From Candidatus Beckwithbacteria bacterium GW2011_GWC1_49_16 (GTDB lineage: Bacteria > Patescibacteriota > Microgenomatia > UBA1400 > CG1-02-47-37), in assembly GCA_001029675.1 (NCBI GenBank), contig CP011210.1:192193-256192 (forward strand): a DNA stretch of 64,000 nt. The letters run 5' to 3'. Positions 2,906 to 56,354 of this stretch are shown here, piece after piece; position 1 is the first letter of the stretch, and the number at the start of each line of letters is the position of its first letter. A model generated the notes under the pieces. The model saw nothing but the letters and a program-made list of their open reading frames with translations, was not told the origin of the DNA and did not search any database. A program made the position numbers and the translations under genes.

Positions 2906-3970
2906 TTATTTCTTTTTAAAGAATTCTGTCAAGGATGATTTCCTCATAAAATTCCTACCAAAAAGGTAGAAGTTAATGATCAAAAACAGCGCCAGCAGGG
3001 CTTTGTAGGGTAGGACTAGAAACTTGATGGTAGCGGAAACGGTGTTGGTGGTATCGGCCGGGGTAATTTGGGCGGTGGCGGAGTAGAGGCCCAAAGGGAA
3101 AAGGGGATTCCAACCAACAACACACCCGGTGTGTAAGTTTCTTTCACACCGGGTGTGTTCGAGTGAAGTAAGCGATCTGGTGGAGCCGGCCAAAATGTTG
3201 TCTTCACGCAGAGGCAAGACGGCGCTTGACTGACCAAACATGTTGGTGACGGTGATTGAACCGACGGCTTTGAGTTTGGTTTGGGAGGTGTTTTTGACCC
3301 GGAGGGTAAAGCCGATGGGGTCGAAAGAATCCAATAAGGAGAGTCCTCGAAGGGAACCTTCAAGGACTCTCCTTGAAGGTCTGAACTCTTCTATTTTGGC
3401 GTTTCTGACCGGTTGGCCGTCGCGGGAAACGGTCAGCAGGATATTGGCGCCGATAGCGGCGCGGGAGAGGCTGCCCGAGCCGCCGATTAGGCCCTCGGTG
3501 TCGGAGTCGAAAAGAAAGGTTAAGGAGTGATCGGCGTCGGCAGCGGTTTCCGGGACGCGGATTTTCAAAACCAGCTCCTGGGTGGCGCCGGCGGCAAGCG
3601 CAAAGCGGGCGGGAAGATCAAGGTCGGCGTTTTGCAGGGAGAAATAGCTCACTGTCGGAGAAACTTCATTGGGGAGGACTTCGACGTGGCCGAGCTCGTC
3701 AGCCGGGCGGAAAGGGACGATCCTGGCGGTAATGTTGGTGTCGTCGCCCATATTTTTCAAGCGGTAAACTTGGGTGATGGCGGTGCCGGGTTTGATGGTG
3801 ACTTCCAAAAGCGGCGGCCAGATGGAAAGAGAGGTGGTTTGCCCGTAAGCGGCTGGCGCTGCGTAAACCGTAAACAGTAAACCGTAAACGGTAATTATCA
3901 GAGGTAAAAATAAATTACCGAATGTCGTTTTTAATGTTCCTCCATTAAGGTCCGACCTTTTTGTAGGCAT
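2906..3970 (-). CDS. cell-surface protein, paralog of 437..1429 (signal peptide plus C-terminal TM anchor)
   Basis: The 2906..4162 ORF is probably initiated at the internal Met (MPTKRSDL...) at 3970, giving signal peptide LPLIITVYGLLFTVYAAPAAYG. LEVTIKPGTAITQVYRLKN resembles LEVEALPGATLQETLKVSN of the paralog. C-terminal TM plus RKSSLTEFFKKK tail. Contains in-frame palindromic element at 3121..3157. Confidence 0.5.
   Translation of the reverse strand: MPTKRSDLNGGTLKTTFGNLFLPLIITVYGLLFTVYAAPAAYGQTTSLSIWPPLLEVTIKPGTAITQVYRLKNMGDDTNITARIVPFRPADELGHVEVLPNEVSPTVSYFSLQNADLDLPARFALAAGATQELVLKIRVPETAADADHSLTFLFDSDTEGLIGGSGSLSRAAIGANILLTVSRDGQPVRNAKIEEFRPSRRVLEGSLRGLSLLDSFDPIGFTLRVKNTSQTKLKAVGSITVTNMFGQSSAVLPLREDNILAGSTRSLTSLEHTRCERNLHTGCVVGWNPLFPLGLYSATAQITPADTTNTVSATIKFLVLPYKALLALFLIINFYLFGRNFMRKSSLTEFFKKK
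3121..3157. repeat. palindromic element variant CACACCCGGTGTG-taagtttcttt-CACACCGGGTGTG, in-frame in surface-protein gene
   Basis: Exact inverted 13-mers. Read on the minus strand as HTRCERNLHTGCV. Confidence 0.9.
3863..3897. repeat. (GTAAACN)x5 heptamer tandem repeat in signal-peptide-coding region
   Basis: gtaaacc gtaaaca gtaaacc gtaaacg gtaatta. Encodes ITVYGLLFTVY. Confidence 0.8.
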
Positions 3971-3971
3971 A

Positions 3972-4694
3972 TTAATAGCCGGGGGTGGCGATAAAAGTGA
4001 CGGCATTTTCGTAGTCGCCGGCGGCTTGGGTGGCGGAAATATTAACTTTGTAAGTGGCGGTGGCGCTGCGGTCTTGGCCGACGTTGGCACTCGACATGAC
4101 AATTTGGGCGGTTTCGGCGGCAGAAGCATCGGCGAACTGCCTGAAGTAAGTAGAGTTGACAAAGTCGGCCGGAATGTCGTTACCGCTCATGTTGAAGCCA
4201 AAGCCGAAGTTGGCGCTATTGGTCCAGACGGCAGCGGTGGTTTCGTCGCAAGCGGTGTCGCAGGTGGTGTCAGGGATGGTGGTAGATGAGGTTTGCAGTT
4301 TCAAGGGGTGGTTGGCAAAGGCAGCGACCGAGTAGCCGCCCGCCCCGCCGGCAGAGACGGTTAGGGTGTTGGTTTGGGTAGAGAAGCTAGACGGGGTCAA
4401 AGCGCCAAAGTCGATGGACAGATCAGAGATGGTAAAGGCAAAAGCGATGATGGTTTTGATATAGGGGAAGCCAGCGCGGACGATGTAGCCGGTCGAATCG
4501 TATTGCCCCGGGGCGGTTTGGCCGACGGTGTCCAAAATATTGTAGTTATTCGAGGATTTACTGCCAGAAGTCATGTTGAGGTTGGTAAACTGGAGCTCAT
4601 AAGAGTCAGAAGACATGTTTTCGGCCCTGGCGGGCGTAAACCGTAATCCGTAAACCGTAATCAGTAAAATCAGACTCAAAAGCAGTTTTTTCAT
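3972..4694 (-). CDS. secreted surface protein (paralog of 1433..2896, C-terminal AGDYENAVTF motif)
   Basis: Signal peptide MKKLLLSLILLITVYGL. C-terminus AAGDYENAVTFIATPGY matches the 487-aa protein. Confidence 0.5.
   Translation of the reverse strand: MKKLLLSLILLITVYGLRFTPARAENMSSDSYELQFTNLNMTSGSKSSNNYNILDTVGQTAPGQYDSTGYIVRAGFPYIKTIIAFAFTISDLSIDFGALTPSSFSTQTNTLTVSAGGAGGYSVAAFANHPLKLQTSSTTIPDTTCDTACDETTAAVWTNSANFGFGFNMSGNDIPADFVNSTYFRQFADASAAETAQIVMSSANVGQDRSATATYKVNISATQAAGDYENAVTFIATPGY
4635..4669. repeat. (CGTAAWC)x4-5 heptamer tandem repeat in signal-peptide-coding region
   Basis: cgtaaac cgtaatc cgtaaac cgtaatc agtaaaa. Encodes ITVYGLRFTP. Confidence 0.8.
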
Positions 4695-5425: not shown

Positions 5426-5479
5426 AGAATTATTGTACTAGTAAATGTCGGTCGGCGTCAATTTTGGTATAATAGAGGT

Positions 5480-5776
5480 ATGGCTAACAAACTGCCGCGG
5501 CGCTTTGCCAAGTATTTCTGGGATGTGGATCCTAAAAAGATTGACTTGGTGGTAAATGACGACTACGTGATTAAAAGGATGTTAGATTTGAGTGAAACCA
5601 GTGGCATTAAGTGGTTGCTTAAGCGTTATGGTGTGGCCAAAATCAAGCAGGTGTTGCGTCACTCCCGAGGGATTAAAAGGAAAACGGCCTGGTTTTGGAT
5701 GAACGTTTTGAATTTACCAAAAGAGGAGATAAAGTGTTTAAGAACACCTTATCAGTCGACACCTTTCGGGGTTTAA
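5480..5776 (+). CDS. small protein upstream of the AbiEii-like gene (possible antitoxin/partner)
   Basis: 98-aa ORF overlapping the start of the downstream nucleotidyltransferase gene. No recognisable domain. Confidence 0.3.
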   Translation: MANKLPRRFAKYFWDVDPKKIDLVVNDDYVIKRMLDLSETSGIKWLLKRYGVAKIKQVLRHSRGIKRKTAWFWMNVLNLPKEEIKCLRTPYQSTPFGV

Positions 5777-6372
5777 AGCTGGTAGGCAAAAGCAAGATAT
5801 TGCCTGGTGCCTATTTGGCGGGCGGGACGGCGCTAGCCTTGAGGTTGGGGCACAGACGATCGGTAGATTTGGACTTTTTTACCAGAAAAAAATTTAATGA
5901 ACAGATTGTGGTGCGGCGACTAAAAAAGCTGGGCAAGTTTAAAGAGAAAACGGTTGATTGGCAAACGGTTATGGGTAGTCTATTTGGGGTAAGTTTTAGT
6001 TTATTTTATTTTGAGTATCCGTTAGTGGGGAAGACCGATCAGTTTGAAGGGGTAGCTATCGCTTCGCTTAAAGATATAGCGGCGATGAAGTTGAGGGCTA
6101 TAGGCGATCGGGGGACCAAGAGAGATTTTGTCGACCTGTTTTTTTTGGCCAAGGAAATGCGCTTGGCAGAAGTGTTTCAGCTTTACCATAAGAAGTTTGG
6201 CGGGCTTACGGAGCAAAAGTATCATTTGTGGCGGGCCTTAAACTACTTTGAAGATGCCGATAAGGACGTCTTGCCGAAAATGTTTAGGCCGGTCGAGTGG
6301 AGTCAAGTGAAGCGGTTTTTTAACGGCGAGGTGAAAAAGTTAGCCGCCGAGTTGAAGTTGACGCGGGGGTAG
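5695..6372 (+). CDS. nucleotidyltransferase AbiEii/AbiGii (DUF1814) family toxin-like protein
   Basis: Motif LAGGTALALRLGHRRSVDLDFF is characteristic of AbiEii-type nucleotidyltransferases. The start may be downstream of 5695. Confidence 0.6.
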   Translation: MDERFEFTKRGDKVFKNTLSVDTFRGLKLVGKSKILPGAYLAGGTALALRLGHRRSVDLDFFTRKKFNEQIVVRRLKKLGKFKEKTVDWQTVMGSLFGVSFSLFYFEYPLVGKTDQFEGVAIASLKDIAAMKLRAIGDRGTKRDFVDLFFLAKEMRLAEVFQLYHKKFGGLTEQKYHLWRALNYFEDADKDVLPKMFRPVEWSQVKRFFNGEVKKLAAELKLTRG

Positions 6373-6436
6373 AGATTTTTGATAAGTTGTGGTATAAAGT
6401 AACCTTAGTCTGCCCGAAAGGCGGATTTTTAGTATG
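6371..6436 (+). promoter_or_regulatory. conserved ~65-bp 5' leader (copy A) with tataaa box and CUGCC-CGAAA-GGCGG hairpin plus U-run immediately before ATG
   Basis: Near-identical to 6922..6988: gttgtggtataaa(g/c)taac...agtctgcccgaaaggcggatttttagtATGG. Confidence 0.4.
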
Positions 6437-6892
6437 GCGCCGGAGATTTTTTACCCAGACAATGATAGAGTCAAAGAATTGTCATTTCAACCGAGTCAGA
6501 GTTATTTAGGAATAGATTTAAAAGCTGAAGGAGGGGTTGATACAGAAGCAATTGATGACTTTGGAGTAGAAGTGGGTAAGCATATTGCTGGAACTTTAAC
6601 TCTTAAGTATGTGGTTGTGGAGGATTTAATGTTTGTTTTTTCGGGAAACGTTCAACACCTTGATTTTTGGAATTCAGCCGTAAAATTGACAGATCTAAAA
6701 ATTCAGGCAGCAGGGTTGTTGGTTTTACCTGATGAGTCCAACAGATTTGGTCTAAGAATGTTACGAAATGAGGCTCCAAGTATGGTGGGCAAGAATCTTT
6801 TTTTTGAGAGAGAATCGAAAGCATATACTGAGAAAGTTATCATTCCAGGCCTAGGTGAGGGGTTTTTATTATCAGAGCTTGGCGTTTTATAA
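6434..6892 (+). CDS. hypothetical protein
   Basis: 152-aa ORF directly downstream of conserved leader copy A. Confidence 0.35.
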   Translation: MAPEIFYPDNDRVKELSFQPSQSYLGIDLKAEGGVDTEAIDDFGVEVGKHIAGTLTLKYVVVEDLMFVFSGNVQHLDFWNSAVKLTDLKIQAAGLLVLPDESNRFGLRMLRNEAPSMVGKNLFFERESKAYTEKVIIPGLGEGFLLSELGVL

Positions 6893-6921
6893 AGCTTCTC
6901 AGTTCTTTGGCTTTTTTAAGC

Positions 6922-6988
6922 TAGAGTTTTTGGGCAGGTTGTGGTATAAACTAACTCAAGTCTGCCCGAAAGGCGGATTTTTAGTATG
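6922..6988 (+). promoter_or_regulatory. conserved ~65-bp 5' leader (copy B)
   Basis: Direct repeat of 6371..6436 ending at the ATG of the 6986 gene. Confidence 0.4.
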
Positions 6989-7708
6989 GGATTTGAAACA
7001 CAATCAGGATTACCAGGAAAACCACAATTTGGCTGGGATTCTCCTGCGACTCAAGAGGCGGTGGAGCGAGCCAAAAAAGCCACGATAAGGAAGATAGGTA
7101 AAGGAGAGTTGAAGTTAAGTTTGGGGCAGGGAGGTGGAGAGAGGGTTGTTAGCTATAGTTCAGGAATTAAGGTTGGGTTACCTTTGGAAGATGTAGCCAA
7201 GATTGCCCCGGGTAGGGACGGAAGTTTGTCTGTCGGCCGAATGCATTTAATGAGCCAATGGTTGAGGGCTTTTAACCTTTATGATTTGAGTTTTGATTCT
7301 GATTCAGAGAGTGTAAGAGTTATTAAAAACTTTAGATCTTCAGTGACGCTTGGAGGGTTCAGGCCAGCAGTGGATGTAATGGTGGGCGCTAGCGACTACC
7401 ACCATGGCGGAGTAAAGTTACCCGATGGTTATTGGTTTCTTAATAGCGCCAGAAGGGTTATTGGCGGGTTGATGCTGTTTTATGAGGGTGAGGATTTCGG
7501 CGCAGTGAGGGATAGGGGTTTCTTAGTGGTACAGCAAGGCGAGGATAATAAAACCGTGGCTGCTTTTCCGGACTACATGGGTCGACTTTGGCCGGTGCCG
7601 TTTGCGGAGCAGACAGGGCCTGGCCTGAAGAGGATGTTTGAGGAGGGAGGAGCTTTGGCAGCTTGGAATCCGGTGATAGGGGTTTGCGATCCGGAATTTA
7701 AAACATAA
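6986..7708 (+). CDS. hypothetical protein
   Basis: 240-aa ORF downstream of leader copy B. Confidence 0.4.
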   Translation: MGFETQSGLPGKPQFGWDSPATQEAVERAKKATIRKIGKGELKLSLGQGGGERVVSYSSGIKVGLPLEDVAKIAPGRDGSLSVGRMHLMSQWLRAFNLYDLSFDSDSESVRVIKNFRSSVTLGGFRPAVDVMVGASDYHHGGVKLPDGYWFLNSARRVIGGLMLFYEGEDFGAVRDRGFLVVQQGEDNKTVAAFPDYMGRLWPVPFAEQTGPGLKRMFEEGGALAAWNPVIGVCDPEFKT

Positions 7709-7763: not shown

Positions 7764-10310
7764 ATGAGTTTTGACCATAATAAAATCGAAGCCAAGTGGC
7801 GGAAGAAATGGCGGGAGTCTGGGCTATATAAGGTAGACCTTAAAGGCGCCAAAAAGCCCTTTTATAACTTAATGATGTTTCCATATCCTAGCGCCGAAGG
7901 GCTTCATGTGGGTAACATGTACGCTTTCACCGGGGCGGATTTTTACGGCCGGTTCCAGGCGATGCGGGGGCAAGAGGTGTTTGAGCCGATTGGGCTTGAC
8001 GGTTTTGGGATTCACAGCGAAAACTACGCCATCAAGATCGGCGCCCACCCGTCGCAGCAAGCCAAGGTGAGTCAGAAGCGCTTTTACGACCAACTATCCC
8101 GCATCGGTAACCGCTTTTCCTGGGAACAGCGTTTGGAGACTTACGATCCCGAGTACTACAAATGGACCCAGTGGCTGTTTATCAAGATGTTTGAGAAAGG
8201 GTTGGCGGTCAGGAAAAAATCGATGGTCAACTGGTGCCCGAGCTGTAAAACGGTTCTGGCCGACGAGCAGGTCGAGGGCGGGGTGTGTGAGCGGTGTAAG
8301 ACGCCGACGGTGAGAAAAGAGACCTATCAGTGGTTTTTCAAGATTACCGACTATGCCGACAGACTGCTTGGTAACATCGACAAGATCGACTGGCCGCAAA
8401 AGATTAAGACCGCCCAAAGGAATTGGATTGGTCGCAAAGAAGGCATTAACATCACTTACGAAATTAAAGGCAGCAAAAAAACAGTCACTTGTTTTACAAC
8501 CACGCCGGTGAATTTTGGCGCCACTTTTATTGTTATTGCTCCTGAACATGTGTTAGTAAAAGAAAGTAAGAACAAAAAAATCCAAGAATATGTCACTAAG
8601 GCACTGAAAAAAACTGAACAGCAGCGACAAATGGAAGGAAAAGAGAAAACCGGCGTTTTCACCGGGCTTTATGCTGTTAATCATGTCACCAAAAAAGAAA
8701 TTCCCATTTGGGTGGCAGATTTTGTCTTAAAAGACGTTGGCACTGGGGCGGTTCAGGGTTGCCCGGGGCATGATTTACGCGACTTTGAGTTTGCCAAGAA
8801 GTTTGGATTGCCGATTACACGGGTTGTGGTTGGTCCTGATGGGGACAGAAACGAAATTACCAGAAAGGAGCAAGTGATTCAGTCGGGAACGTCAGGAAAA
8901 ATGGTAAATTCAGACTTTTTGAACGGTATGGAGTTTAGTAAAGCAATGCAAAAAACCATGGATTACTTTGAAGAAAGGGGTTGGGGCGAAAGAGTGATTA
9001 GTTTTCACCTGCGCGATTGGCTCATATCCCGCCAACGCTACTGGGGGCCGCCGATACCGATGATTTTTTGTGATAAGTGCGAATGGCAGCCGGTGCCCGA
9101 GAAAGATTTGCCGGTGGAGTTGCCGTTCGTCAAAGACTATCAGCCTTTGGGCGAGGGTAAGGCGCCTTTGGAGAAAGCCCCGAAAGAGTGGCTTGAGGTC
9201 AAGTGCCCGAATTGCGGCGGGAAAGCCAGAAGAGAGACAGACGTCTCGGATACTTTTCTAGACTCAAGTTGGTATTTTTTACGTTATCCTTCGATTAAAT
9301 CCAATAAGGACAGTCTTCCCGGTACCGGAAAGACTGTCCTTAGGGAAAAACTGCCGTGGGATCAAGAGGTCACACGGCGCTGGCTGCCGGTCAACGCCTA
9401 CATTGGCGGCGCCGAGCACGCGGTGTTGCATCTTCTGTACTCGCGCTTTGTCTGGATGTGTTTAAGAGATTGGGGGTATTTGCCCAAAAGCCTGGGTGAC
9501 GAGCCGTTTCCGTTTTTGTATTCCCACGGCCTGTTAATCAAAGACGGTGCCAAGATGAGTAAAAGCCGCGGCAACGTGGTTATTCCTGACGAGTACATGG
9601 AAAAATTCGGCACCGACGCTTTGCGGATGTACTTGATGTTTATCGGCCCCTACGACCAGGGAGGGGATTTCCAAGATACGGGGATGATGGGGATGAGGAA
9701 GTTTTTGGATCGGGTGTGGCGGTTGGTGATTGCCATCCAGGACACTCCCGGAGTGAAAAATTCTGCCACTCCGGGAGTGTCTGAGGTGGGTCGCTTCCGG
9801 CATCAGACGGTAAAAAGAGTTACCCAGGCCATGGAAAACTTGCGCTACAACGTCGGTATCGCCGCTTTGATGGAGTATGTTAACTTCTTGGAATTTCACC
9901 TTAGATTACTCACTCCCGGAGTGAAAAATTCCTCCACTCCGGGAGTGGTTGTGGAAGCCGTCGAAACTTTAGTATTGCTGCTGGCGCCAATGGCACCGTT
10001 TATCAGCGAAGAGATGTGGCAGATGCTGCGCAAATCCGAAGCACGAAGCACGAAATTCGAATCCGTCCACCAGCAAGCTTGGCCGACTTTTGACGAAGAG
10101 AAAGCGCGCGCCGATAAAGTTGAAGTGGTGGTCCAGGTTAATGGCAAACTGCGCGCCCGGTTGAGCCTTGGTCGAGACGAAGCCCAAGACAAAGAGCAGG
10201 TGTTTAAGGCAGCCAAGTCAGAGGCGGCGGTCAAAAGATACCTTGAGAACAAAAAGCCGGTCAAGGAGATTTTTGTCAAGGGCAAGCTGGTTAACCTGGT
10301 GGTTAGATAA
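7764..10310 (+). CDS. leuS: leucyl-tRNA synthetase
   Basis: 848 aa with a class I HIGH-type motif (HVGN) and KMSKS (GAKMSKSRGN). Carries two in-frame palindromic inserts (TPGVKNSATPGV, TPGVKNSSTPGV) and a heptamer-repeat insert (SEARSTKFES). Confidence 0.95.
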   Translation: MSFDHNKIEAKWRKKWRESGLYKVDLKGAKKPFYNLMMFPYPSAEGLHVGNMYAFTGADFYGRFQAMRGQEVFEPIGLDGFGIHSENYAIKIGAHPSQQAKVSQKRFYDQLSRIGNRFSWEQRLETYDPEYYKWTQWLFIKMFEKGLAVRKKSMVNWCPSCKTVLADEQVEGGVCERCKTPTVRKETYQWFFKITDYADRLLGNIDKIDWPQKIKTAQRNWIGRKEGINITYEIKGSKKTVTCFTTTPVNFGATFIVIAPEHVLVKESKNKKIQEYVTKALKKTEQQRQMEGKEKTGVFTGLYAVNHVTKKEIPIWVADFVLKDVGTGAVQGCPGHDLRDFEFAKKFGLPITRVVVGPDGDRNEITRKEQVIQSGTSGKMVNSDFLNGMEFSKAMQKTMDYFEERGWGERVISFHLRDWLISRQRYWGPPIPMIFCDKCEWQPVPEKDLPVELPFVKDYQPLGEGKAPLEKAPKEWLEVKCPNCGGKARRETDVSDTFLDSSWYFLRYPSIKSNKDSLPGTGKTVLREKLPWDQEVTRRWLPVNAYIGGAEHAVLHLLYSRFVWMCLRDWGYLPKSLGDEPFPFLYSHGLLIKDGAKMSKSRGNVVIPDEYMEKFGTDALRMYLMFIGPYDQGGDFQDTGMMGMRKFLDRVWRLVIAIQDTPGVKNSATPGVSEVGRFRHQTVKRVTQAMENLRYNVGIAALMEYVNFLEFHLRLLTPGVKNSSTPGVVVEAVETLVLLLAPMAPFISEEMWQMLRKSEARSTKFESVHQQAWPTFDEEKARADKVEVVVQVNGKLRARLSLGRDEAQDKEQVFKAAKSEAAVKRYLENKKPVKEIFVKGKLVNLVVR
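9743..9779. repeat. palindromic element CACTCCCGGAGTG-aaaaattctgc-CACTCCGGGAGTG, in-frame in leuS
   Basis: Exact inverted 13-mers separated by 11 nt. Translated as TPGVKNSATPGV. Confidence 0.9.
9911..9947. repeat. palindromic element CACTCCCGGAGTG-aaaaattcctc-CACTCCGGGAGTG, in-frame in leuS
   Basis: Second copy 168 bp downstream of the first. Translated as TPGVKNSSTPGV. Confidence 0.9.
10033..10066. repeat. heptamer-type simple repeat insert (CGAAGCA x2.5) in leuS
   Basis: aaatccgaagcacgaagcacgaaattcgaatccg encodes SEARSTKFES. Related to the inserts in argS and truB. Confidence 0.7.
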
Positions 10311-11328
10311 ATTTGTCCAGGATGATATAGACGACCATGGCAAAGAAAGCCGAGGCGGGAATGGTTAAAAACCAAGCCAGAACGATTCTTCTGGCCGTGC
10401 CCCAGCTGACGGCACGATTGGCCCGGGTGGCGCCGACCCCCATGATCGAGCCGGAGATAGCGTGGGTGGTTGAAACCGGAAAACCCATAAAGCTTGAGGC
10501 AGCCAGCACTATGGCGCTGCCGGTTTCGGCGGCAAAACCCTGGTAGGGCCGCAGTTTGGTAATTTTTTTGGCCATGGTTTTGACGATCTTCCAGCCGCCG
10601 AGTAAAGTGCCCAAGGCAATAGTTAAGTTGACGCTGATAATCACCCAAAGGGGAACTTGAAAGTGAGTCAGAAAGCCTTGCTGGACCAAAAGAATGGTTA
10701 ATATCCCCATGACTTTCTGGCCGTCGTTTGAGCCGTGGGTGACGGAAAAGAAAAAGGAGGAGAAAATTTGTAACAGGCGAAAATAAGGGTTGATTTTGAC
10801 GGTAGAGAAACGGATAAACAAGCGGATAATCAGAGCGATAAACAGAAAAGTAAAGCTAAAAGAGATAACCGGCGAGGCGACCATGGGGATGATTACTTTG
10901 TTCCAAACGCCGATGAGGTTGACCGGCGACCAGCTTCTGGCAGCCGTGGCGCCGGCGCCGACCAGACCGCCGATCAAAACGTGGGATTCGGATATGGGCA
11001 AACCCCAGAACCAGGTGGCCACATCAAAAATCAAGCCGCCGATCAACGCCGCCAGGATGAGTTTGTAGCTGATGATGTTAGGGTCAATAATGCCTTGACC
11101 GATGGTGGCGGCCACAGCCGTGCCTAAAAGAACACCCATGAAGTTGCCCAACGCCGAGAGCATTACCGCTTGTCCGGGTTTTAAAACCCGGGTGGCGACG
11201 ATGGTGGCGATGGCGTTGGCCGCGTCAGAAAAGCCGTTCCAAAAAGCAAAAAAAAGACTCACCGCCAGGGTAAGAATAAACAACCCCATCAAAGGTTTTT
11301 CATGACAACTTTTTGAGTCAGGTTGCAA
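10303..11328 (-). CDS. inorganic phosphate transporter, PiT family
   Basis: Polytopic membrane protein with GFSDAANAIATIV and GSNDGQKVMGI motifs typical of PiT (PF01384). Confidence 0.85.
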   Translation of the reverse strand: MQPDSKSCHEKPLMGLFILTLAVSLFFAFWNGFSDAANAIATIVATRVLKPGQAVMLSALGNFMGVLLGTAVAATIGQGIIDPNIISYKLILAALIGGLIFDVATWFWGLPISESHVLIGGLVGAGATAARSWSPVNLIGVWNKVIIPMVASPVISFSFTFLFIALIIRLFIRFSTVKINPYFRLLQIFSSFFFSVTHGSNDGQKVMGILTILLVQQGFLTHFQVPLWVIISVNLTIALGTLLGGWKIVKTMAKKITKLRPYQGFAAETGSAIVLAASSFMGFPVSTTHAISGSIMGVGATRANRAVSWGTARRIVLAWFLTIPASAFFAMVVYIILDKFI

Positions 11329-44391: not shown

Positions 44392-44749
44392 ACTGCCCAG
44401 CTACAAGGTTTACGAGGATGAGGAGTTCTTGGCTTTTTTGGATATTTTTCCCAAATCAACCGGTCACACTTTGGTGATTCCTAAAAAGCACGTGGAGTGG
44501 GTGTGGGACCTGCCTGCCGGCAGGCAGGTTACTCCGAATTTAGGCAAGTACTTTGAAGTAGTGGGTAAAATTGCCAAAAACCACAGGAAACTGGCGCCCG
44601 ACGGGATTGTCCGGTCGATCATCTGGGGCTGGGAAGTGCCTCATGCTCATATTCATCTTCTTCCGGGAAAAAGTAACGACCTTTCGGGTGAGAAGCTGGG
44701 TGACGAGAAAATGAAGCAGATACAAAGGCAGTTTAGCCTCAAAAAATGA
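44339..44749 (+). CDS. HIT family hydrolase
   Basis: CIFCQI...FLDIFPKSTGHTLVIPKKH...HAHIHLLP histidine triad. Confidence 0.85.
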   Translation: MIIGSMQECIFCQIVAGKLPSYKVYEDEEFLAFLDIFPKSTGHTLVIPKKHVEWVWDLPAGRQVTPNLGKYFEVVGKIAKNHRKLAPDGIVRSIIWGWEVPHAHIHLLPGKSNDLSGEKLGDEKMKQIQRQFSLKK

Positions 44750-45732
44750 GGCTCGCACCCAAGTTTTGGTGGGGACTGGGGCTGGTTTTAATCCTTCACG
44801 GAGTTATGTTTTGGGTCAAGCAGAGTCAAAACCCGCTCTGGTACCAGCAGGATAACTATGTGGGTTATGCCAGGGGGTTGATTGAGGGTGGCGGGATTGA
44901 CCAACCGTGGTTGTTTCCCGGGTTGGCGATGTTGATCGCTGCCGCGGCCAAGGCGGTCGGCAGCGTGGTGGTAGCGGCAACAGGGGTGGCGGCAATAAGC
45001 TTGGCGGCGATTTACGCTTTAGCTTACTTAATGACTTATGATTGGTTATTTGCCGCGATGATTAGCTTGTTTCCGCCGATAGTGTTTGAGCAGACGAGTA
45101 AAGTGAGTACGACCGGCTTAGTGGTGGCGGGCTGGCTTGGTGCCTACTACCTCTACAGTAAGCGGCGGGGCTATTGGGCCAGCTTGGTGACGGTTTTATC
45201 GGCTTTGGTGAGGCCGGTGGCGGTGATTTTGGGCGTAGCTTGGCTGATAGATTTAGGCACAAAGGGGAAGTATAAAGAGGCGTTGATTAACGGATTGATT
45301 TTGGGGTTGTTTCCCATGGGCTTGTGGCTGTTTAACCGGCAAGTGTTTGGCGAGGGGGTGTTTTATCAAGCAAAAATGTACCAAACTTTGGGGCCGGTGC
45401 GGGTGGGGATTGTTCAGTTTGGCAGGGACATTTTGCGGGCGGTTGATTGGGGCTACTGGCGGATTCTGGCTTCGGGTTTGACCTATTTGGGGCTGTCTTT
45501 GGTCTTGGTAGGGATGATAATAAAAAGCCGGGCCGAGGTTTTGATCAAGTGGTGGGCGGGGCTGACTTTGGTTTATGTTTTGGCAGTGGGGCCGGAGCCG
45601 CTGCTGGAGGAGTTTAGGCGTTACATTGCGGTTTTGTTTCCTTTGGGACTGGTGGTTTTATACCCGAGATTTAAGCCTTACCGGTTGGTCTTAGGAGTGC
45701 TGATGGTGATGTCTCTGGCGGCTTTTTGGTGA
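44746..45732 (+). CDS. hypothetical polytopic membrane protein
   Basis: About 9 TM helices. Possibly glycosyltransferase-C-like. Confidence 0.4.
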   Translation: MRLAPKFWWGLGLVLILHGVMFWVKQSQNPLWYQQDNYVGYARGLIEGGGIDQPWLFPGLAMLIAAAAKAVGSVVVAATGVAAISLAAIYALAYLMTYDWLFAAMISLFPPIVFEQTSKVSTTGLVVAGWLGAYYLYSKRRGYWASLVTVLSALVRPVAVILGVAWLIDLGTKGKYKEALINGLILGLFPMGLWLFNRQVFGEGVFYQAKMYQTLGPVRVGIVQFGRDILRAVDWGYWRILASGLTYLGLSLVLVGMIIKSRAEVLIKWWAGLTLVYVLAVGPEPLLEEFRRYIAVLFPLGLVVLYPRFKPYRLVLGVLMVMSLAAFW

Positions 45733-46775
45733 GGCGGGGTTTTGAGGTTGACCAAGACAACGCGGGCGCGTGATTTTTGAGCCAGAGTTAGCAGCGGTTT
45801 TAGGGTGCGGCCGGCCCACTCGACGGCGGCGACGGTTTTGGTTTTGAGGCGATCTTCAAGATGAAGCTGATAAAACTCCTCGATGTGACTAAGCCGCCAA
45901 GTGTCAAGGTGTAAAAACTTGCCGAAAACTTTATAGCGGCGGAAGGGGTATTCTCTTTCGATGGTGTAGGTGGGCGAAACGATGGTTTGAGGGATTTTAA
46001 GAAACCGGCCGATGCCTTTGGCAAACTGGGTTTTGCCCGAGCCAAGGTCACCAATGAGCAAAAACAGCAAGGGTTTTTTCTGTAAATCGTTCCAGTGTGC
46101 CAGCATCAGTTTTTGGGCCAAGTCGCTTGTTTCTTGAGGAGAGTGGGTGGTAACACTTTCCGCACTCCCGGAGTGGGGGAATTTTTCACTCCGGGAGTGA
46201 AGGAGTTTAATTTTGCCTTCGCGCAGAATCAGCGGATCATCCAGAGTGGTATCGACCACGGTGGAGGCCGGGCGGCGGGGGAGTTTACCAACATCAATAA
46301 TAAAATCAATCAAACTTTGCTGTTTTCGGCTGGTGTGTTTCAAAAGTTGGGAGATGGAATAAGGCTTGGGTTTGTAGGAGACATTGGCAGAAGTGGCGGT
46401 GATGGGGCGTCCCAGCCTGCCAGCGAGCGCCAGCGCTACCGGGTGATCAGGAATGCGGATCCCCAGAGTGCCGGTTTCTGACTCCACTCCCGGGGCGACT
46501 TTGCCCCGGCCCCACGACACCACAGTCAACGGTCCGGGTAAAAACTTTCTGTATAAGTTTTTAGCAGAGGTATTTAGTTTGACATATTTTGATGCCATGG
46601 TTTGGTCAGCGACGGCCACTGATAAAGGTTTGCCTTCGCGGCGGGATTTGTAGGCAAGTAATTTGGCGACCGCCTTTTTGCTGGTGGCGTCGACGCCGGC
46701 ACCGTAACACGTTTCGGTGGGGTAGATCACCAGGCCGTGGGCTTTTAAGACTTTGACGGCTTGGGTGATTTCCAT
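45678..46775 (-). CDS. fused L-threonylcarbamoyladenylate synthase TsaC (YrdC domain) and TsaE (YjeE P-loop) protein
   Basis: N-terminus VIYPTETCYGAGVDA...GIRIPDHPVALALAGRLGRPITATSAN is the YrdC domain. C-terminus LLFLLIGDLGSGKTQFAKGI...SPTYTI...HLDTWRL is TsaE. The palindromic insert (HSRSEKFPHSGSAE) sits in the inter-domain linker. Confidence 0.8.
   Translation of the reverse strand: MEITQAVKVLKAHGLVIYPTETCYGAGVDATSKKAVAKLLAYKSRREGKPLSVAVADQTMASKYVKLNTSAKNLYRKFLPGPLTVVSWGRGKVAPGVESETGTLGIRIPDHPVALALAGRLGRPITATSANVSYKPKPYSISQLLKHTSRKQQSLIDFIIDVGKLPRRPASTVVDTTLDDPLILREGKIKLLHSRSEKFPHSGSAESVTTHSPQETSDLAQKLMLAHWNDLQKKPLLFLLIGDLGSGKTQFAKGIGRFLKIPQTIVSPTYTIEREYPFRRYKVFGKFLHLDTWRLSHIEEFYQLHLEDRLKTKTVAAVEWAGRTLKPLLTLAQKSRARVVLVNLKTPPHQKAARDITISTPKTNR
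46163..46199. repeat. palindromic element CACTCCCGGAGTG-ggggaattttt-CACTCCGGGAGTG, in-frame at the TsaC/TsaE junction
   Basis: Exact inverted 13-mers separated by an 11-nt spacer. Confidence 0.9.
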
Positions 46776-48082
46776 TACTTAAGGTTAATCGAGTACAGAT
46801 TGGGGGGCTGGTTTGAACCGCCGTTTAAGGAGGCCAGAATTATCAGCCTGGAGCCGTTGGGCCAGGGATAGGCAAAGTCGTCGGAAAAAGGGCCGGCGTA
46901 GACGGTATCCTGGTTGGTGCCGTCGTATTCACCGATAACGATTTTACCCTCCTGGACTAAAATGTAGTGGCGGGAATCGGGGAACCACTGGACGGGCTGG
47001 AAGTGAATCGGGCTGTAGCGGTGGGAAAGAGTTTCGAGGGAGGAATCTTTCACTCCGGGAGTGTCAGTTGCAGGCGCAGCTGCCAGCCAGAAATTTTTGT
47101 CTTCTTCCAAGTCATAGATGTAAATGTTGTCTTTTTCAAGGTTGCGCCTTTGAACTTGGGTGGAGGAGGCTGGTACCGGCGGGATTAAGTTCTCTGGGAT
47201 GGTAAGAGTTTCCACAGCGGTGTACATCAGCTTGTCTTCGTCGGGTGACCAGTAGACGGCTCGGGCCGACTCGGTGGCAACTTTTTGCATAAATTCGGGC
47301 AGAAGGACTAGCCGTTCGTGGTCTTTTTTATCCAAAAGCTCGTGCCATTCTGAAAGGGTTACCGGCAGCCTGGCGGTGGCGTCTTTTAGGGTGGCGATGT
47401 CATTGAGGCTTGATACGGAAAGGAGAATGTTACGCTCGTCCGGCTGATTAAGGTTGACGCTAACCAGGATTTGGGATGAGTCGGGCGACCAGGTGAGACG
47501 GGCAACGGTAAAGTCAAAGTCCGGGTGGGGCCGGGAGATTTGCCGGGGCTCGGAGTTGAAGCCAAAGGGGCGGTCGAAAAGGTCTAAAACGTAGAGGCCA
47601 TTTTTGTCGTTGGTGGTGGCGTTGCCGACGGCAAAGGCGATCTTCTGGCCGTCGGGCGAGGGGGTGAGATTTAAAGCTCCGGAAAAAGTCAGGGGTTTTA
47701 AGTCGGGGACAGAGGGGAAGAGCCGGGCGTTGGTTTGGGCGACCAGTTCTGCCTCCAAAACCAAAGTTTTTTCCCAGGGAATGTAGCCGTCTTGGGCGAT
47801 TTTGACCCGGTACTGGCCCGGGGGCAAGTTTAAGGTGTCGTCGGTGGCGGTGGTCAACTTGTCGTTTAAAAAGACGCTGGCACCGCGGGGTACGGAGTTG
47901 GCGGCGAGCAACCCCGTGCCCTGTAAGGCCCGACTAGCCAGCGACGGCCGGTAGCCCCGGGCAAGCCTGATGGCAAAGTAAGTGCCGGTGACAAAAAACA
48001 AGACGGCCACGATGACGATCAAAAGCCTTGGGGTGCGCTGGAACATGGTAGCGGTATTATACCTTAATTTATAATCAGCCAA
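46775..48082 (-). CDS. PEGA-domain plus TolB-like beta-propeller repeat protein, N-terminal TM anchor
   Basis: PEGA motif (RGASVFLNDKLTTATDDTLNLPPGQYRVKIAQDGYIPWEKTL) and repeated WSPDxxxL propeller blades. Contains a half-site of the palindromic element (TPGVKDSS). Confidence 0.55.
   Translation of the reverse strand: MADYKLRYNTATMFQRTPRLLIVIVAVLFFVTGTYFAIRLARGYRPSLASRALQGTGLLAANSVPRGASVFLNDKLTTATDDTLNLPPGQYRVKIAQDGYIPWEKTLVLEAELVAQTNARLFPSVPDLKPLTFSGALNLTPSPDGQKIAFAVGNATTNDKNGLYVLDLFDRPFGFNSEPRQISRPHPDFDFTVARLTWSPDSSQILVSVNLNQPDERNILLSVSSLNDIATLKDATARLPVTLSEWHELLDKKDHERLVLLPEFMQKVATESARAVYWSPDEDKLMYTAVETLTIPENLIPPVPASSTQVQRRNLEKDNIYIYDLEEDKNFWLAAAPATDTPGVKDSSLETLSHRYSPIHFQPVQWFPDSRHYILVQEGKIVIGEYDGTNQDTVYAGPFSDDFAYPWPNGSRLIILASLNGGSNQPPNLYSINLK
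47050..47062. repeat. solo half-site CACTCCGGGAGTG of the palindromic element
   Basis: Followed by ...gcaggcgca..., which also occurs in the spacer of the GT4 copy. Confidence 0.7.
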
Positions 48083-51020: not shown

Positions 51021-52073
51021 GTGCTAAATTTATTCACCATGGCGATGATTCAAAAAGTAGGCATAGATTTAGGCACGGCCAACTCGGTGGTGTATTTGGC
51101 GGGCAGCGGCATAGTGCTGGCCGAACCGACGGTGGTAGCGGTGACGGTGGAAGACAACCGGGTGGTGGCGGTGGGTAACGAAGCCAAAGAAATGCTGGGG
51201 AGGACTCCGGAAAACATTGTCGCTTCAAAGCCGATGCGCGACGGGGTGATTGCCGATTACGTGGTCACCGAAGCGATGTTGCGGTATTTTTTGCAGAAAG
51301 TGGCCGGGCGAAACTTGATTTTTAAACCGGACGTGATGATTTGCGTTCCCGCCGGTTGTACTCAAGTAGAGAGAAGAGCGGTTGAAGACGCCACCTACGC
51401 TGCCGGAGCCAGAGAAGTGTATATCATTCACGAGCCGTTTGCGGCGGCTTTGGGAGCCGGGGTGCCGGTGGGCGAGGCCTCGGGCAACATGATTGTCGAC
51501 ATGGGCGGCGGTTCGTCTGAAGCGGCAGTGATCTCTTTAGGCGGGGTGGTAGTGGCCAAGGGTATCCGGGTGGCCGGCAATAGCCTGGACGACGCCATCG
51601 CCGGTTTTGTCAGGAAAAAACACGGCCTGGTGGTGGGCGAGAGGATGGCCGAGGAGATAAAGATCAACTTGGGCCGAGCGTCGAGCGAAGTTGAAACCAC
51701 GAACCACGAACCACGAACCACGAACCAGAAAATGCGGGTCAAAGGCAGGGACAGCATCCAAGGCTTACCCAAATCAGTCGAGGTGACGGCAGAAGAGATT
51801 GAAGAGGCGATTAAACCTAAATTATCCCAGATCGTCGGCATGGTTAAGTCGGTTTTAGAGGAGATTCCGCCGGAGCTATCCAGCGACATTATTGATAAGG
51901 GGATTGTGATGAGCGGCGGGACGAGCCTGCTAACTAACCTGGACAAGTTACTGACTGCCGAGACCGGCGTTCCCTGCCACATTGCCGAAGAGCCGATGCT
52001 TTGCGTCGCCCGCGGCACGGGGATTGCTTTGGATAACCTGGAGCTTTACAAGCGGGCGATTAGTAAGAGGTAG
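51021..52073 (+). CDS. mreB: rod-shape-determining protein MreB
   Basis: IGIDLGTANSVVY, actin-fold phosphate motifs and GGGSSEAAV. The start may be the internal Met at ~51039. Contains (CACGAAC)x4 insert encoding ETTNHEPRTTNQ. Confidence 0.9.
   Translation: MLNLFTMAMIQKVGIDLGTANSVVYLAGSGIVLAEPTVVAVTVEDNRVVAVGNEAKEMLGRTPENIVASKPMRDGVIADYVVTEAMLRYFLQKVAGRNLIFKPDVMICVPAGCTQVERRAVEDATYAAGAREVYIIHEPFAAALGAGVPVGEASGNMIVDMGGGSSEAAVISLGGVVVAKGIRVAGNSLDDAIAGFVRKKHGLVVGERMAEEIKINLGRASSEVETTNHEPRTTNQKMRVKGRDSIQGLPKSVEVTAEEIEEAIKPKLSQIVGMVKSVLEEIPPELSSDIIDKGIVMSGGTSLLTNLDKLLTAETGVPCHIAEEPMLCVARGTGIALDNLELYKRAISKR
51698..51725. repeat. (CACGAAC)x4 perfect heptamer tandem repeat inside mreB
   Basis: The four perfect 7-mers can be read directly from the sequence. 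Confidence 0.85.
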
Positions 52074-52074
52074 C

Positions 52075-52845: not shown

Positions 52846-52922
52846 AGGTAAATTTTACCACGACCATCGATTTACTTTCCCCCTTGACAATTTTCACGCG
52901 GGTGTGCGACACTTAAATATTG

Positions 52923-53456
52923 ATGTTTGCCAGAATGAAATACAAATGGCTTAAAAACAAGAAAAAGATTTTAGGGTTTGGTGGGCTTTCGGTGGCAGTA
53001 GTCGGCTTGGCAGTAGGGGTATCTTTAGTCCAAAGAAGTCAAAGACTCGAAAGTCAAGCTAGAAGTGAACAGGTAAATCCGTGCGGGTACGGACTGGATT
53101 GTACCGACAAACCCATTACAGGAGCAACGAGTTGTGTTGATCAATATGGAGGAAATTCTTACTGTTGTCCGGAAAACTCTATTAGGTGGTACGGAGCCTG
53201 TGTGGAGAAATGTGGGTCGGGCTTAAGCTGTTGGGATTATCCTGTCCAGGGTGCTTCTCGCTGTATTGTTATTACTAACAAGATAACTGAGACTTACTGT
53301 TGTCCAAAGGATAAGCCATGGAACCTAAATGGCGTTTGCAACCCGGCGCCTAGACGTTTTCGTCCTAACCCAGTCAATAAACCGACATCTTCTCCAGAAG
53401 GAGAGTCGGGAGTTCCTGGATTGCCGGAAGTGTCGGGCCAACCCATTCCTCTATAG
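52923..53456 (+). CDS. small secreted Cys-rich protein, paralog A
   Basis: Signal peptide MFARMKYKWLKNKKKILGFGGLSVAVVGLAV. 12 Cys in the mature part (CCPEN...CCPKD). Confidence 0.5.
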   Translation: MFARMKYKWLKNKKKILGFGGLSVAVVGLAVGVSLVQRSQRLESQARSEQVNPCGYGLDCTDKPITGATSCVDQYGGNSYCCPENSIRWYGACVEKCGSGLSCWDYPVQGASRCIVITNKITETYCCPKDKPWNLNGVCNPAPRRFRPNPVNKPTSSPEGESGVPGLPEVSGQPIPL

Positions 53457-53531
53457 AGTTAGTTTTTTACACACGGTTGATTACTTTCCCCCTTGACAAT
53501 TTTCACGCGGGTGTGCGACACTTAAATATTG

Positions 53532-54023
53532 ATGTTTGCCAGAATGAAGTTTAAGTGGTTAAAAAACAAGAAAAAGATTTTAGGGTTTGGCGGGCTTTCG
53601 GTAGCGGTGGTGGGACTGGCAGTAGCTTTAACAGCGCTTCAAACAGGGGGTTTGGATATCCGCTCTCTGGCTTCTCCACCAAAAACCAATGAGTTCTGTG
53701 AAGTGATAAGAAAAAACGACCCGAATTGTGAAAGAGTCCCCAGCAAATTAAAAAATTGCTGTCAGTCAACACCTTCGCCATCACCGACACCGACACCATC
53801 ACCGACACCTTTAGTATCCCCAACACCTGGAGACGGGAGTTTACCAGCTTGTCCAGCCGGAACAGATGCTGATAGATGTATCGATGTTGACCAGCCGAAT
53901 GATATTGTTGGAGGGGTTTGTTTGTCTGAAATTGATAGTGGAGAAACAACTTATACGGCCTGTTGCGCTGAAGGGAAGAAGCCGGTTTATGATTTTGACA
54001 GTGCTAAGTACATCTGCCAGTAG
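53532..54023 (+). CDS. small secreted Cys-rich protein, paralog B
   Basis: 5' region and signal peptide near-identical to paralog A, then a divergent Cys-rich mature domain with a (SPTP)n linker. Confidence 0.5.
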   Translation: MFARMKFKWLKNKKKILGFGGLSVAVVGLAVALTALQTGGLDIRSLASPPKTNEFCEVIRKNDPNCERVPSKLKNCCQSTPSPSPTPTPSPTPLVSPTPGDGSLPACPAGTDADRCIDVDQPNDIVGGVCLSEIDSGETTYTACCAEGKKPVYDFDSAKYICQ

Positions 54024-54067
54024 TTAGAAAAGATTAGTGGTTTCTGCGGGCGGGGAGGGGAAGTGAG

Positions 54068-55147: not shown

Positions 55148-55190
55148 AATGAGACGATGAACGCAAGCGAAGTTGTGTTAAGATTTACTC

Positions 55191-56354
55191 ATGATAATCG
55201 GCATTGATGCGTCGAGGGCGTATAGCAAAGACCGGGCCGGGGTGGAGAATTATTCCAATGAGTTAATCTGGGAGATGGTCAGGTTGCCGGAAGCAAAAAG
55301 CCATCAGTTTCGGCTTTATGTCCGGGCGGGGGCAAAGGTAGATGATGAGGTGAGGGGAAAAGAAAATGTCGAGGTAGTGGAGATCCCCTGGCCGAGGTTG
55401 TGGACGCAAGGGGGGTTGGCGTTGGAGTGTTTGGTGCGGCCGCCGGACGTTTTGTTTATTCCGGCTCACACTTTGCCGGTAATAAGAAGGTCGAGTTTGA
55501 AAACAGTGGTCACCATTCACGGCGTCGAGTACGAGTATTTGCCCGAGTATTACCGTTGGCCGCAAAAACTTTATCTTAATCGTTCCACCGAGTACGCGGT
55601 TGAGAGAGCCGACAAAATCATTGCTGTTTCCAATTGGGTTAAAAAGGAGTTGGTTAGTCGCTTAGGAGGGGATGAGAAGAAGATTCAAGTGATTTATGAG
55701 GGGGTAGGAAGAAGGTTTTTGGCCGCGGCAGAAACGGGACTTAATAAAAAGTTTTTCCGCCAAGTCAAGCACAAGTACGGTTTGCCGGACAGCTACTTGT
55801 TGTTTGTGGGCACAATCCAGCCGAGAAAGAACCTGGAGAAGTTGATTGAGGCGTTTGCGAAGGTAATACACTCCGGGAGTGTGCCGCAGGCGCAACACCA
55901 CTCCGGGAGTGAACCGCATTTAGTCATTGCCGGGAAAAAGGGCTGGATGTACCAGGAGATTTACGCCGCGCCGAAAAAGTTTGGCGTGGCCGACAAGGTC
56001 AAGTTTATCGGCCGGGTGGCCGATTACGACTTACCGGCGGTTTATCAAGGGGCGGAGGCGCTGGTTTATCCGAGTCTAATGGAGGGTTTTGGCTTGCCGG
56101 TGTTGGAAGCGTTTACTTTAGGCATTCCGGTTATCACTTCCGATCGCGGAGCGCTAAAAGAAGTCGCGGCCGCCGCCGCTTTACAGATAGATCCGGAAAA
56201 TGTCAGTCATTTAGCAGACGCGATCGGTTTGGTGCTAAAAAACCGGCAGTTGCGCGAGGGTTTAAGGGAAAAAGGCCTGGGACGGGCTCGAGAGTTTTCT
56301 TGGCAAAAAGCCGCCCTAGCCACTTTGAGCCTGGTCACCGATGTGGTAAAATAG
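55191..56354 (+). CDS. glycosyltransferase family 4 (GT-B)
   Basis: GTIQPRKNLEKLIEAF and YPSLMEGFGLPVLEAFTLGIPVITSDRGALKEV (the EX7E region). Carries a palindromic-element variant encoding HSGSVPQAQHHSGSE. Confidence 0.85.
   Translation: MIIGIDASRAYSKDRAGVENYSNELIWEMVRLPEAKSHQFRLYVRAGAKVDDEVRGKENVEVVEIPWPRLWTQGGLALECLVRPPDVLFIPAHTLPVIRRSSLKTVVTIHGVEYEYLPEYYRWPQKLYLNRSTEYAVERADKIIAVSNWVKKELVSRLGGDEKKIQVIYEGVGRRFLAAAETGLNKKFFRQVKHKYGLPDSYLLFVGTIQPRKNLEKLIEAFAKVIHSGSVPQAQHHSGSEPHLVIAGKKGWMYQEIYAAPKKFGVADKVKFIGRVADYDLPAVYQGAEALVYPSLMEGFGLPVLEAFTLGIPVITSDRGALKEVAAAAALQIDPENVSHLADAIGLVLKNRQLREGLREKGLGRAREFSWQKAALATLSLVTDVVK
55869..55911. repeat. palindromic-element variant: CACTCCGGGAGTG x2 in direct orientation with 17-nt spacer, in-frame in GT4 gene
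   Basis: cactccgggagtg-tgccgcaggcgcaacac-cactccgggagtg. Confidence 0.8.

Follow-up and report, generated by a model that had tools for sequence, protein, structure and literature searches.

In-frame palindromes in the genes of a Microgenomates bacterium: a probable miniature REPIN-like family

Known palindromic repeats and the 37-mers of the window

Repetitive extragenic palindromic (REP) sequences, and the REPINs (REP doublets forming hairpins) built from them, are known together with REP-associated tyrosine transposases (RAYTs) from E. coli and Pseudomonas (PMC3116915, PMC3337134, PMC5581495), and REPtrons have been described as well (PMC3733652). REPs of the GTAG/CGTC type that lie within genes are on record from other bacteria (Di Nocera et al. 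2013, PMC3733652). A separate class, the Rickettsia palindromic elements (RPEs; Ogata et al. 2000, as presented in PMC3733652 and PMC3184786), measures ~105-146 bp and has no transposase assigned to it in these accounts. Here we describe a family of palindromes of 37 nucleotides (nt) that lie in frame within protein-coding genes of Candidatus Beckwithbacteria bacterium GW2011_GWC1_49_16, a Microgenomates member of the Candidate Phyla Radiation (CPR), in a stretch of 64,000 nt (contig CP011210.1, positions 192,193 to 256,192), hereafter the window. We regard the 37-mers as REP doublets, that is, as a miniature REPIN-like element that is intragenic and translated, with a solitary RAYT of the Y1/HUH type as its likely enzyme, and give this reading a probability of about 0.7.

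The likeness to REPIN-RAYT systems embraces the short GC-rich palindromic unit, the two inverted units that make one hairpin around a short spacer, the singlets that appear as remnants of doublets, the genome-specific sequence populations, the solitary Y1/HUH transposase gene between the same repeats, and the lack of target duplication. The present family differs in measuring only 37-39 nt with 13-nt units, in having no GTAG/CGTC tag, and in a CPR/Microgenomates host with several divergent RAYT paralogues per ~1-Mb genome; it also lies inside open reading frames (ORFs) and is apparently translated, whereas REPs are extragenic. With the intragenic GTAG/CGTC REPs (PMC3733652) it shares singlets and dimers that encode tens of extra residues, hosts among the tRNA synthetases, and sites that are sometimes occupied in related species as well. 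Those REPs, however, are tetranucleotide-tagged and their intragenic copies form a minority within mostly intergenic families, whereas the copies described here are as ORF-embedded as random positions and show a strong frame preference.

The initial annotation had called the palindromes RPE-like. As a description of in-frame behaviour this is a fair analogy, since RPEs, as far as PMC3733652 and PMC3184786 portray them, are palindromic repeats lying in frame in functional, even essential genes at permissive surface positions, and the same kind of placement at tolerated surface positions of functional protein genes is found here. As a classification it is superseded: a length of 37-39 nt and a CPR host set the family apart from the RPE lengths and consensus families (RPE-1 to RPE-8) given in those accounts, and a REP/REPIN with a cognate RAYT is supported as the better-fitting known class. 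There was no indication of sequence relatedness to RPEs, though no alignment to RPE consensus sequences was made. The GC clusters and double-hairpin elements of fungal mitochondria are likewise very short mobile palindromes, found in frame in coding regions and in rRNA regions of compact genomes; they belong to organelle genomes and have a different mode of mobilisation, not known to involve a RAYT. Palindromic coding repeats readable on either strand are also known as PARCELs (palindromic amphipathic repeat coding elements; PMC2996958), which differ in that they stand in tandem within genes for surface proteins in Mollicutes and protists and are not dispersed hairpin insertions in housekeeping enzymes. 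The principle is therefore not new, because intragenic REPs, some of them in tRNA synthetase genes, and RPEs have been described before (PMC3733652, PMC3184786). What is new is the CPR lineage, the very small size, gene interiors as the normal habitat, the strong frame preference, and the evidence of turnover at orthologous sites of essential genes. The literature searched, with incomplete coverage, held no description of REP-RAYT systems or in-frame palindromes in CPR, in agreement with the initial remark that no equivalent was known for such genomes.

The repeat family is real: arm CACWCCSGGWGTG is matched 16 times in the window with at most one mismatch, compared with 0.11 matches expected by chance from 100 dinucleotide shuffles. 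A full copy, CACWCCCGGWGTG-N11-CACWCCGGGWGTG, consists of a 13-mer, an 11-nt spacer and the reverse-complement 13-mer, 37 nt in all (37-39 nt across the family), and thus presents the short, GC-rich, many times dispersed palindromic unit that is typical of REPs and REPINs. Where eight copies of this structure had first been counted, six are full; to these are added one truncated copy (the former half-site at 47050), one pair of same-type arms around a longer spacer at 55869, and one degenerate candidate (Table 1). The pair at 55869-55911 is a rearranged or decayed copy, and the whole segment is missing from GT4 orthologues. Full copies occur about once per 14 kb (~6 in 84 kb, the window together with 10 kb on either side). 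They dominate the perfect hairpins of the window (stem of at least 9 bp, loop of 3-15 nt), of which there are 36 records vs 0-9 in shuffles. Folded as RNA, as had been proposed, the copies reach -26.6 to -31.5 kcal/mol with stems of 13-16 bp and z-scores of -5.8 to -7.9; an Rfam scan of the window returned only two tRNAs and no known RNA family at the elements.

Table 1. Members of the 37-mer family in the window, with host genes and translated readings (strand of the host gene in parentheses)
Feature	Position	Arms and spacer	Host gene	Reading	Location or remark
Full copy	3121-3157	arms CACACCCGGTGTG / CACACCGGGTGTG, spacer TAAGTTTCTTT	hypothetical gene 2906-4162 (-)	HTRCERNLHTGCV	
Full copy	9743-9779		leuS 7764-10310 (+)	TPGVKNSATPGV, residues 661-672	modelled loop between helices 638-659 and 672-691
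Full copy	9911-9947		leuS 7764-10310 (+)	TPGVKNSSTPGV, residues 717-728	modelled loop between helices 695-716 and 727-740
Full copy	19226-19262		Wzy_C/O-antigen-ligase-like gene 18761-20113 (-)	TPGVEEFFTPGV	spacer antisense to gene
Full copy	27037-27073		tsaD 26380-27525 (-)	TPGVKKSPTPGV, residues 152-163	loop after NHMEGH metal-binding motif
Possible decayed copy	39434-39470	ATACCCGGAGTG...CACCACCCCGGAC	gene 38798-40735 (-)		weak
Full copy	46163-46199		Sua5/TsaC-TsaE fusion 45678-46775 (-)	HSRSEKFPHSGS, residues 193-205	linker between domains 9-187 and 211-327
Truncated copy (one arm + spacer)	47039-47063		PEGA-domain gene 46775-48082 (-)	TPGVKDSS	
Two identical arms, 30 nt apart	55869-55911	CACTCCGGGAGTG twice, 17-nt spacer	GT4 glycosyltransferase 55191-56354 (+)	HSGSVPQAQHHSGS	

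Every copy in the window lies within a long ORF and keeps its reading frame, as had been noted, so that the extragenic location of ordinary REPs is not seen here. Host identities, assigned by Pfam, bear out those first named, namely leuS with two copies, tsaD, the linker of the tsaC-tsaE fusion and the GT4 gene; the host of the 3121 copy is without a Pfam match, and orthologues in two other stretches (L063, L108) hold the element in another phase at that site. The idea that the type of peptide follows the DNA strand did not survive: the copies at 19226 and 27037, both in minus-strand genes, nevertheless read TPGV..TPGV, and the peptide is set by the phase and orientation of the copy. The spacer runs in the sense of the host gene in five of the six full copies, and by DNA strand the split is 3 vs 3. 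Two subfamilies are present, one with T/A arms and AAAAATTCYBC spacers and one with A/T arms and AAGAAATCCCC or AAAGAAACTTA spacers. The 37 bases of the 9911 copy are identical to those of the 19226 copy.

Insertion, reading frame and turnover

The elements are missing from solved structures and, for the most part, from orthologues. In the alignment with T. maritima TsaD a gap coincides exactly with the tsaD insert, which closely follows the metal-binding NHxxxH motif, and T. thermophilus LeuRS is without the leuS inserts. The latter are also missing from most of 60 close LeuRS homologues and their distribution is patchy: three homologues (P0015, P0018, P0036) carry TPGV..TPGV at the same two sites as the window leuS, and another (P0024) has the related TSEVKEVHTSEV. 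In an AlphaFold model of the window LeuRS, with a mean predicted local distance difference test score (pLDDT) of 84.9, four segments fall below 50. Three of these are palindrome inserts (516-527, 664-669 and 720-724), the latter two inside the two 37-mers, and one is not (601-603). Both 37-mer inserts and the 516-527 insert are thus modelled as low-confidence loops between helices. Set against its empty orthologue, a filled site is longer by net +39 nt in one case (L115 vs L096) and by net +42 nt in another (the first GT4 site), the boundaries being known as net lengths only, as filled and empty orthologues are too diverged for exact ends. These comparisons support the initial view that the elements are in-frame insertions peculiar to the lineage and placed in linkers or surface loops of essential genes. 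LeuRS has at least five recurrent insert sites, some of which hold unrelated palindromes in different genomes. The insert at residues 516-527 of the window protein is one further in-frame case: it is encoded by a 38-nt near-perfect palindrome at 9305-9342, TAAGGACAGTCTT-CCCGGTACCGGA-AAGACTGTCCTTA, which is different from the 37-mers, and elsewhere the same site is taken by a CACTCC element (L025) or by another insert (L063).

Searched with the 13-N11-13 pattern, GTDB representative genomes yielded 66 stretches, mostly from Microgenomates (Beckwith-, Curtiss-, Woese- and Gottesmanbacteria) and some from Paceibacteria, Berkelbacteria and Omnitrophota. A metagenome scan with the same pattern yielded at least 105, and viral contigs zero. 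The family is therefore widespread in Microgenomates and extends to some other small-celled lineages. Since most matches come from metagenome-assembled genomes (MAGs), one might suspect an artefact of assembly or sequencing. Its probability is next to negligible, however: the identical LeuRS protein occurs in 59 database blocks from independent projects, including a closed 1.05-Mb genome, the copies are in frame, and orthologous sites carry diverged variants. The window itself matches a Rifle aquifer genome without difference, and many other samples yielded this sequence as well. A number of the collected stretches (L010-L012, L018-L020, L029, L030, L034-L036, L044, L052, L055, L059) belong to MAGs deposited as "uncultured Pseudomonadales" or "Gammaproteobacteria", the proteins of which are 60-90% identical to Microgenomates proteins (e.g., L010 vs L043). 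At least three such MAGs, CAYGFS01, CAYFZD01 and CAYICL01, look mislabelled.

The collected set comprises at least 167 distinct copies from public genomes and metagenomes, found with a pattern that demanded intact arms; metagenome contigs cannot always be assigned to genomes, and results on spacer, frame and orientation are unaffected by the demand for intact arms. At least 50 open codons on both sides surround 69% of 134 copies vs 63% of positions taken at random from the same DNA. Not every copy is within a long ORF, and some are in non-coding DNA flanking transposase genes. In many copies from outside the Microgenomates the palindrome extends into the flanks and the frames are short, much as in ordinary intergenic REPs.

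When orthologous sites are collapsed, 76 independent sites remain, over which the phases are distributed as 50 TPGV, 22 HSRS/HTRC and 4 LPEC. No fewer than 41 of the 76 combine the TPGV phase with an A-first spacer, that is, the spacer orientation that starts with Lys. The preferred reading is T-P-G-V-K-x-x-x-T-P-G-V, one frame and orientation for about half of the sites, while five of the six combinations of frame and orientation are open. Moreover, the three free positions of the arm coincide with third-codon positions in the TPGV frame. This frame bias and the location of the free positions, both patterns in the sequence, therefore point to selection on the translated peptide, and with it to translation of the inserts; such selection at the peptide level would be the cause of the bias. 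Conceivably, TPGVK..TPGV could be a protein-level motif with a function of its own, such as a modification or cleavage site, the DNA palindrome being a by-product. The strong excess of the TPGVK frame and the coincidence with third-codon positions would suit such a motif. Yet 26 of the 76 sites give HSRS/HTRC or LPEC peptides from this same DNA, synonymous positions are nearly invariant in the DNA, and the other-frame copies together with those outside long ORFs or in non-coding DNA beside transposase genes largely refute this account, which we hold to be very improbable.

The palindromic character is kept at two levels. The two arms are exact reverse complements of each other at the three free positions in 161 of the 167 copies; each 13-mer is itself palindromic, and 156 copies keep the symmetry within arms as well as that between them. 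In L041 and L043 the arms are not self-palindromic yet still pair with each other, and the conserved feature is therefore the 13-bp hairpin, in the inverted two-unit architecture with short spacer that defines a REPIN. Spacers are genome-specific. Their mean distance is 2.07 within a genome vs 5.94 between genomes, and pairs differing by at most 2 nt make up 77% within vs 11% between.

Turnover is visible at fixed positions. Among 25 sites common to several genomes, spacer orientation or phase differs in 10. At the tsaD site the arms are of the A/T type in the window and of the T/A type in L030; L152 shows a flipped spacer there, and L089 has the related 12-mer family CACCCCGGGGTG, the same variant also occupying its tsaC-tsaE site. 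The tsaC-tsaE linker holds a full copy in the window, a flipped one in L129, a degenerate one in L030 and a solo arm in L068 (another solo arm is found in L159). The arm-to-arm distance is 24 nt, so that collapse to one arm stays in frame. At the second GT4 site three different states of phase and orientation exist among orthologues, and L154 and L122 each keep, beside a full copy, the remains of an older arm. The initial picture of an evolving, dispersed family is borne out by the genome-specific spacers and by these differences in orientation and phase.

Sequence conservation of this kind could also reflect a nucleic-acid signal kept by the host, be it the site of a dimeric chromosomal protein, a DNA-uptake sequence, or an mRNA hairpin acting in translation or stability. 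The double symmetry of most copies speaks for such a signal, as do the persistence of arms at orthologous sites where flanking codons have diverged, the orientation bias relative to the gene, and the competence genes that adjoin leuS. Against these stand the density of the copies, far below that of known uptake sequences; the 13-14 codons that each copy adds, instead of arising through point mutation; the genome-specific spacers and the frequent solo or decayed copies; the patchy distribution among relatives; and hosts that share neither a function nor a fixed position within the gene. We therefore consider a host signal quite improbable. A DNA-uptake sequence in particular, which would occur ~1 per kb and arise mainly by substitution within existing sequence, was rejected on ~6 full copies in 84 kb and on insertions of 39-42 nt.

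Solitary Y1 transposase genes flanked by the same arms

The 1.24 Mb of DNA fetched around the elements was searched for Y1 transposases, with sequences of E. coli RayT and IS200 TnpA solely as first probes, then with a profile built from the matches, which were confirmed with Pfam and NCBIfam. Ten Y1_Tnp-like ORFs were found, and three were characterised by motif and family searches. They carry the HUH (HFH) motif CLMPNHFHFL and a RYIHLNP (RYIHxNP) motif, and score 31-35 bits with Pfam PF01797 (Y1_Tnp) vs a gathering score of 23. In four stretches (L157, L174, L181, L164) the CACWCCSGGWGTG doublet stands just upstream of the Y1 gene and an arm just downstream, the arrangement of a REPtron. In L157 the doublet CACTCCCGGTGTG-N11-CACACCGGGAGTG ends 1 base before the start codon, and beyond the stop comes a partial copy in inverted orientation; the RAYTs of L174 and L181, 71% and 64% identical to that of L157, show the same geometry, and in L164 the downstream singlet lies inside a 29-nt palindrome. 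Related RAYTs are flanked by related hairpins, of the form CAC-N-CC...GG-N-GTG for RAYTs of 57-71% identity, with ACACCC-N4-GGGTGT and CACCCCGGGGGTG beside those of 57-65% identity, and more distant RAYT clades are flanked by other palindromes, so that similarity groups largely follow the hairpin type. The genes are solitary between housekeeping genes and without an adjacent tnpB (L174 and L181, and the related RAYTs in L175 and L177). RAYT-like homologues number more than 7,654 (E <= 1e-10), the named ones coming from Curtiss-, Levy- and other Patescibacteria. One stretch, L177, holds two different RAYT-like genes within 8 kb (2724-3395 and 10001-10645), and many RAYT-like genes sit on ~1-kb contigs, which suggests that flanking repeats break assemblies.

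Boundary direct repeats, sought for k = 2-6 at four boundary offsets, occur only at chance level, and this lack of target-site duplication fits the single-strand mechanism of Y1 enzymes. A MITE (miniature inverted-repeat transposable element) derived from a DDE transposon was rejected, as the inverted arms are present but the target-site duplication is missing. A seemingly conserved "GAYCCC" flanking both sides was dropped as well, many of the copies being orthologues or paralogues of one protein and not independent.

Several observations weigh against a REPIN-RAYT origin. A search of about 84 kb of the 1.05-Mb genome, made up of the window and the adjoining 10 kb at each end, turned up no Y1_Tnp ORF, so that for this genome a cognate enzyme is hypothetical. 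REP_Tyr_transpos is the best NCBIfam family of the Y1 ORFs at 46-51 bits vs a cut-off of 80, and because of this low score their placement with RAYTs, and not with IS200, rests also on gene context. The E. coli TnpA-REP structure (4er8) is the best PDB match, with a weak E = 0.13. Despite the same arms, the RAYT of L164 shares no more than 33-36% identity with the L157 type, and its N-terminus looks damaged. The classical REP tag is missing: GTAG, CTAC, CGTC or GACG occur near the ends in 5-15 of 162 copies, about the chance level, and the flank consensus shows no GTAG/CGTC tag. The conservation of the arms is in part an ascertainment effect, because the search pattern demanded them intact. 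Among LeuRS variants (at least 97% identical, from 90% protein clusters), LeuRS being the only host gene checked, there was no presence/absence polymorphism; all full-length variants of the species have both copies, the sole difference being a frameshift at an unrelated heptamer repeat, and hence there is no sign of current mobility in this species. Finally, to our knowledge, RAYT-driven transposition of a REPIN has not been reconstituted in vivo for any system.

Some of these points would be expected of a selfish palindrome like an RPE or a MITE, without relation to RAYTs, that owes its spread to another transposase, to recombination or to replication slippage, or that consists of immobile relics, RAYT genes being adjacent because REP-like hairpins accumulate there. 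In-frame copies in essential genes, as with RPEs, the 84 kb lacking a RAYT, the fixation of the leuS copies within the species and the distant RAYT of L164 next to the same arms all favour it. However, the upstream doublet and downstream arm recur in L157, L174 and L181, whose RAYTs are 64-71% identical; RAYT relatedness tracks the hairpin type; target-site duplications are absent, as expected of Y1 enzymes and unlike DDE-type MITEs; and the element measures 37-39 nt vs >100 nt for RPEs. We judge such an origin unlikely for the family, and possible for this particular genome.

Under the REPIN-RAYT reading, the family would be part of REP-RAYT systems that are abundant in Microgenomates. Two 13-nt REP units, inverted around an 11-nt spacer, would fold in single-stranded DNA into a 13-bp hairpin, which a Y1 transposase would recognise and copy or move without target-site duplication. 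Mobilisation by a RAYT is proposed by analogy with IS200/IS605 and RAYT enzymes, and the element may still be active. Surviving copies would lie inside genes because intergenic space is almost nil in these genomes. Selection would keep only those insertions that come in multiples of three (net +39 or +42 nt), are free of stops and fall in tolerant loops or linkers, and would favour the frame and orientation that give the flexible T-P-G-V-K-x-x-x-T-P-G-V peptide. Copies would remain palindromic, with turnover at the same site via re-insertion, conversion, spacer inversion and collapse to solo arms; arm symmetry would be maintained through re-insertion, conversion or hairpin-templated repair. 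Such same-site turnover would explain why copies resemble others of their own genome more than orthologues elsewhere.

Neighbouring repeats and meaning for CPR genomes

A second palindrome family, ACCTTCAAGG-N5-CCTTGAAGGT, is found at 421-450, 3356-3380, 19488-19512 and 60172-60196; all copies lie within or at the end of ORFs and encode LQGLSLKV-type peptides. It resembles palindromes flanking another RAYT clade in L113, L114 and L031, and shares the loop ACTCT with L114. A perfect palindrome of 22 nt, ACCTGCCTGCCGGCAGGCAGGT, at 38393-38416 and 44507-44530 (weakly also at 19365-19388), is read as DLPAGRQ in two unrelated ORFs. Repeats with a 7-nt period (AAATCCG AAGCACG AAGCACG ...) occupy 10032-10067, 16953-17023, 51695-51730 and 59776-59811, within leuS, the genes 15531-17288 and 51021-52073, and a truB-like gene, where they encode KSEARSTKFE-type peptides. 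At 16953-17023 the repeats make up a long, imperfect hairpin, and in P0125, a LeuRS variant on public record, a frameshift falls exactly at the heptamer copy of leuS. Heptamer runs of the GTTTACG type (3861-3908, 4634-4681, 18845-18878, 19440-19473) give three membrane or secreted proteins hydrophobic segments that resemble ITVYGLL. The Wzy_C-like gene 18761-20113 (-) alone accommodates five different short repeats, namely two heptamer runs, the 37-mer, a D20-like palindrome and a D7 palindrome.

Two pairs of longer direct repeats extend over the starts of adjacent paralogous genes and the regions upstream of them: 6370-6437 and 6922-6989 (68 nt, 87% identity), and 52872-53016 and 53481-53625 (145 nt, 91% identity). 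The 68-nt unit includes TTGATA-N17-TATAAA and a small hairpin before the ATG. The window encodes ComEA/ComEC. Its GC skew is strongly positive (0.08-0.32) over all 64 kb and never changes sign.

The 37-mers extend REP-RAYT systems to the Candidate Phyla Radiation. REPs are extragenic by name, yet this family, with its likely transposase, lives mainly inside genes, leuS, tsaD and tsaC/tsaE included, of bacteria whose genomes are among the smallest known. The 37-mers account for some of the variation in length among CPR housekeeping proteins and provide a natural experiment in how selfish DNA and proteins accommodate one another, via the choice of frame, hot spots in loops and turnover at fixed sites. 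In practical terms, such repeats may break metagenome assemblies, as the many RAYT contigs of ~1 kb illustrate, and they add spurious "motifs" to protein families. A bolder version, which we offer tentatively and regard as rather doubtful, holds that a REPIN lineage has become specialised for the ORFs of gene-dense CPR genomes, with variable arm positions that are synonymous in the preferred frame, a flexible Thr-Pro-Gly-Val linker as its product, and a domesticated RAYT that continually renews it in essential enzymes, at the same permissive sites. If true, the element would be a long-lived intragenic genomic symbiont that supplies loops and domain linkers to CPR proteins, such as the joint between TsaC and TsaE.

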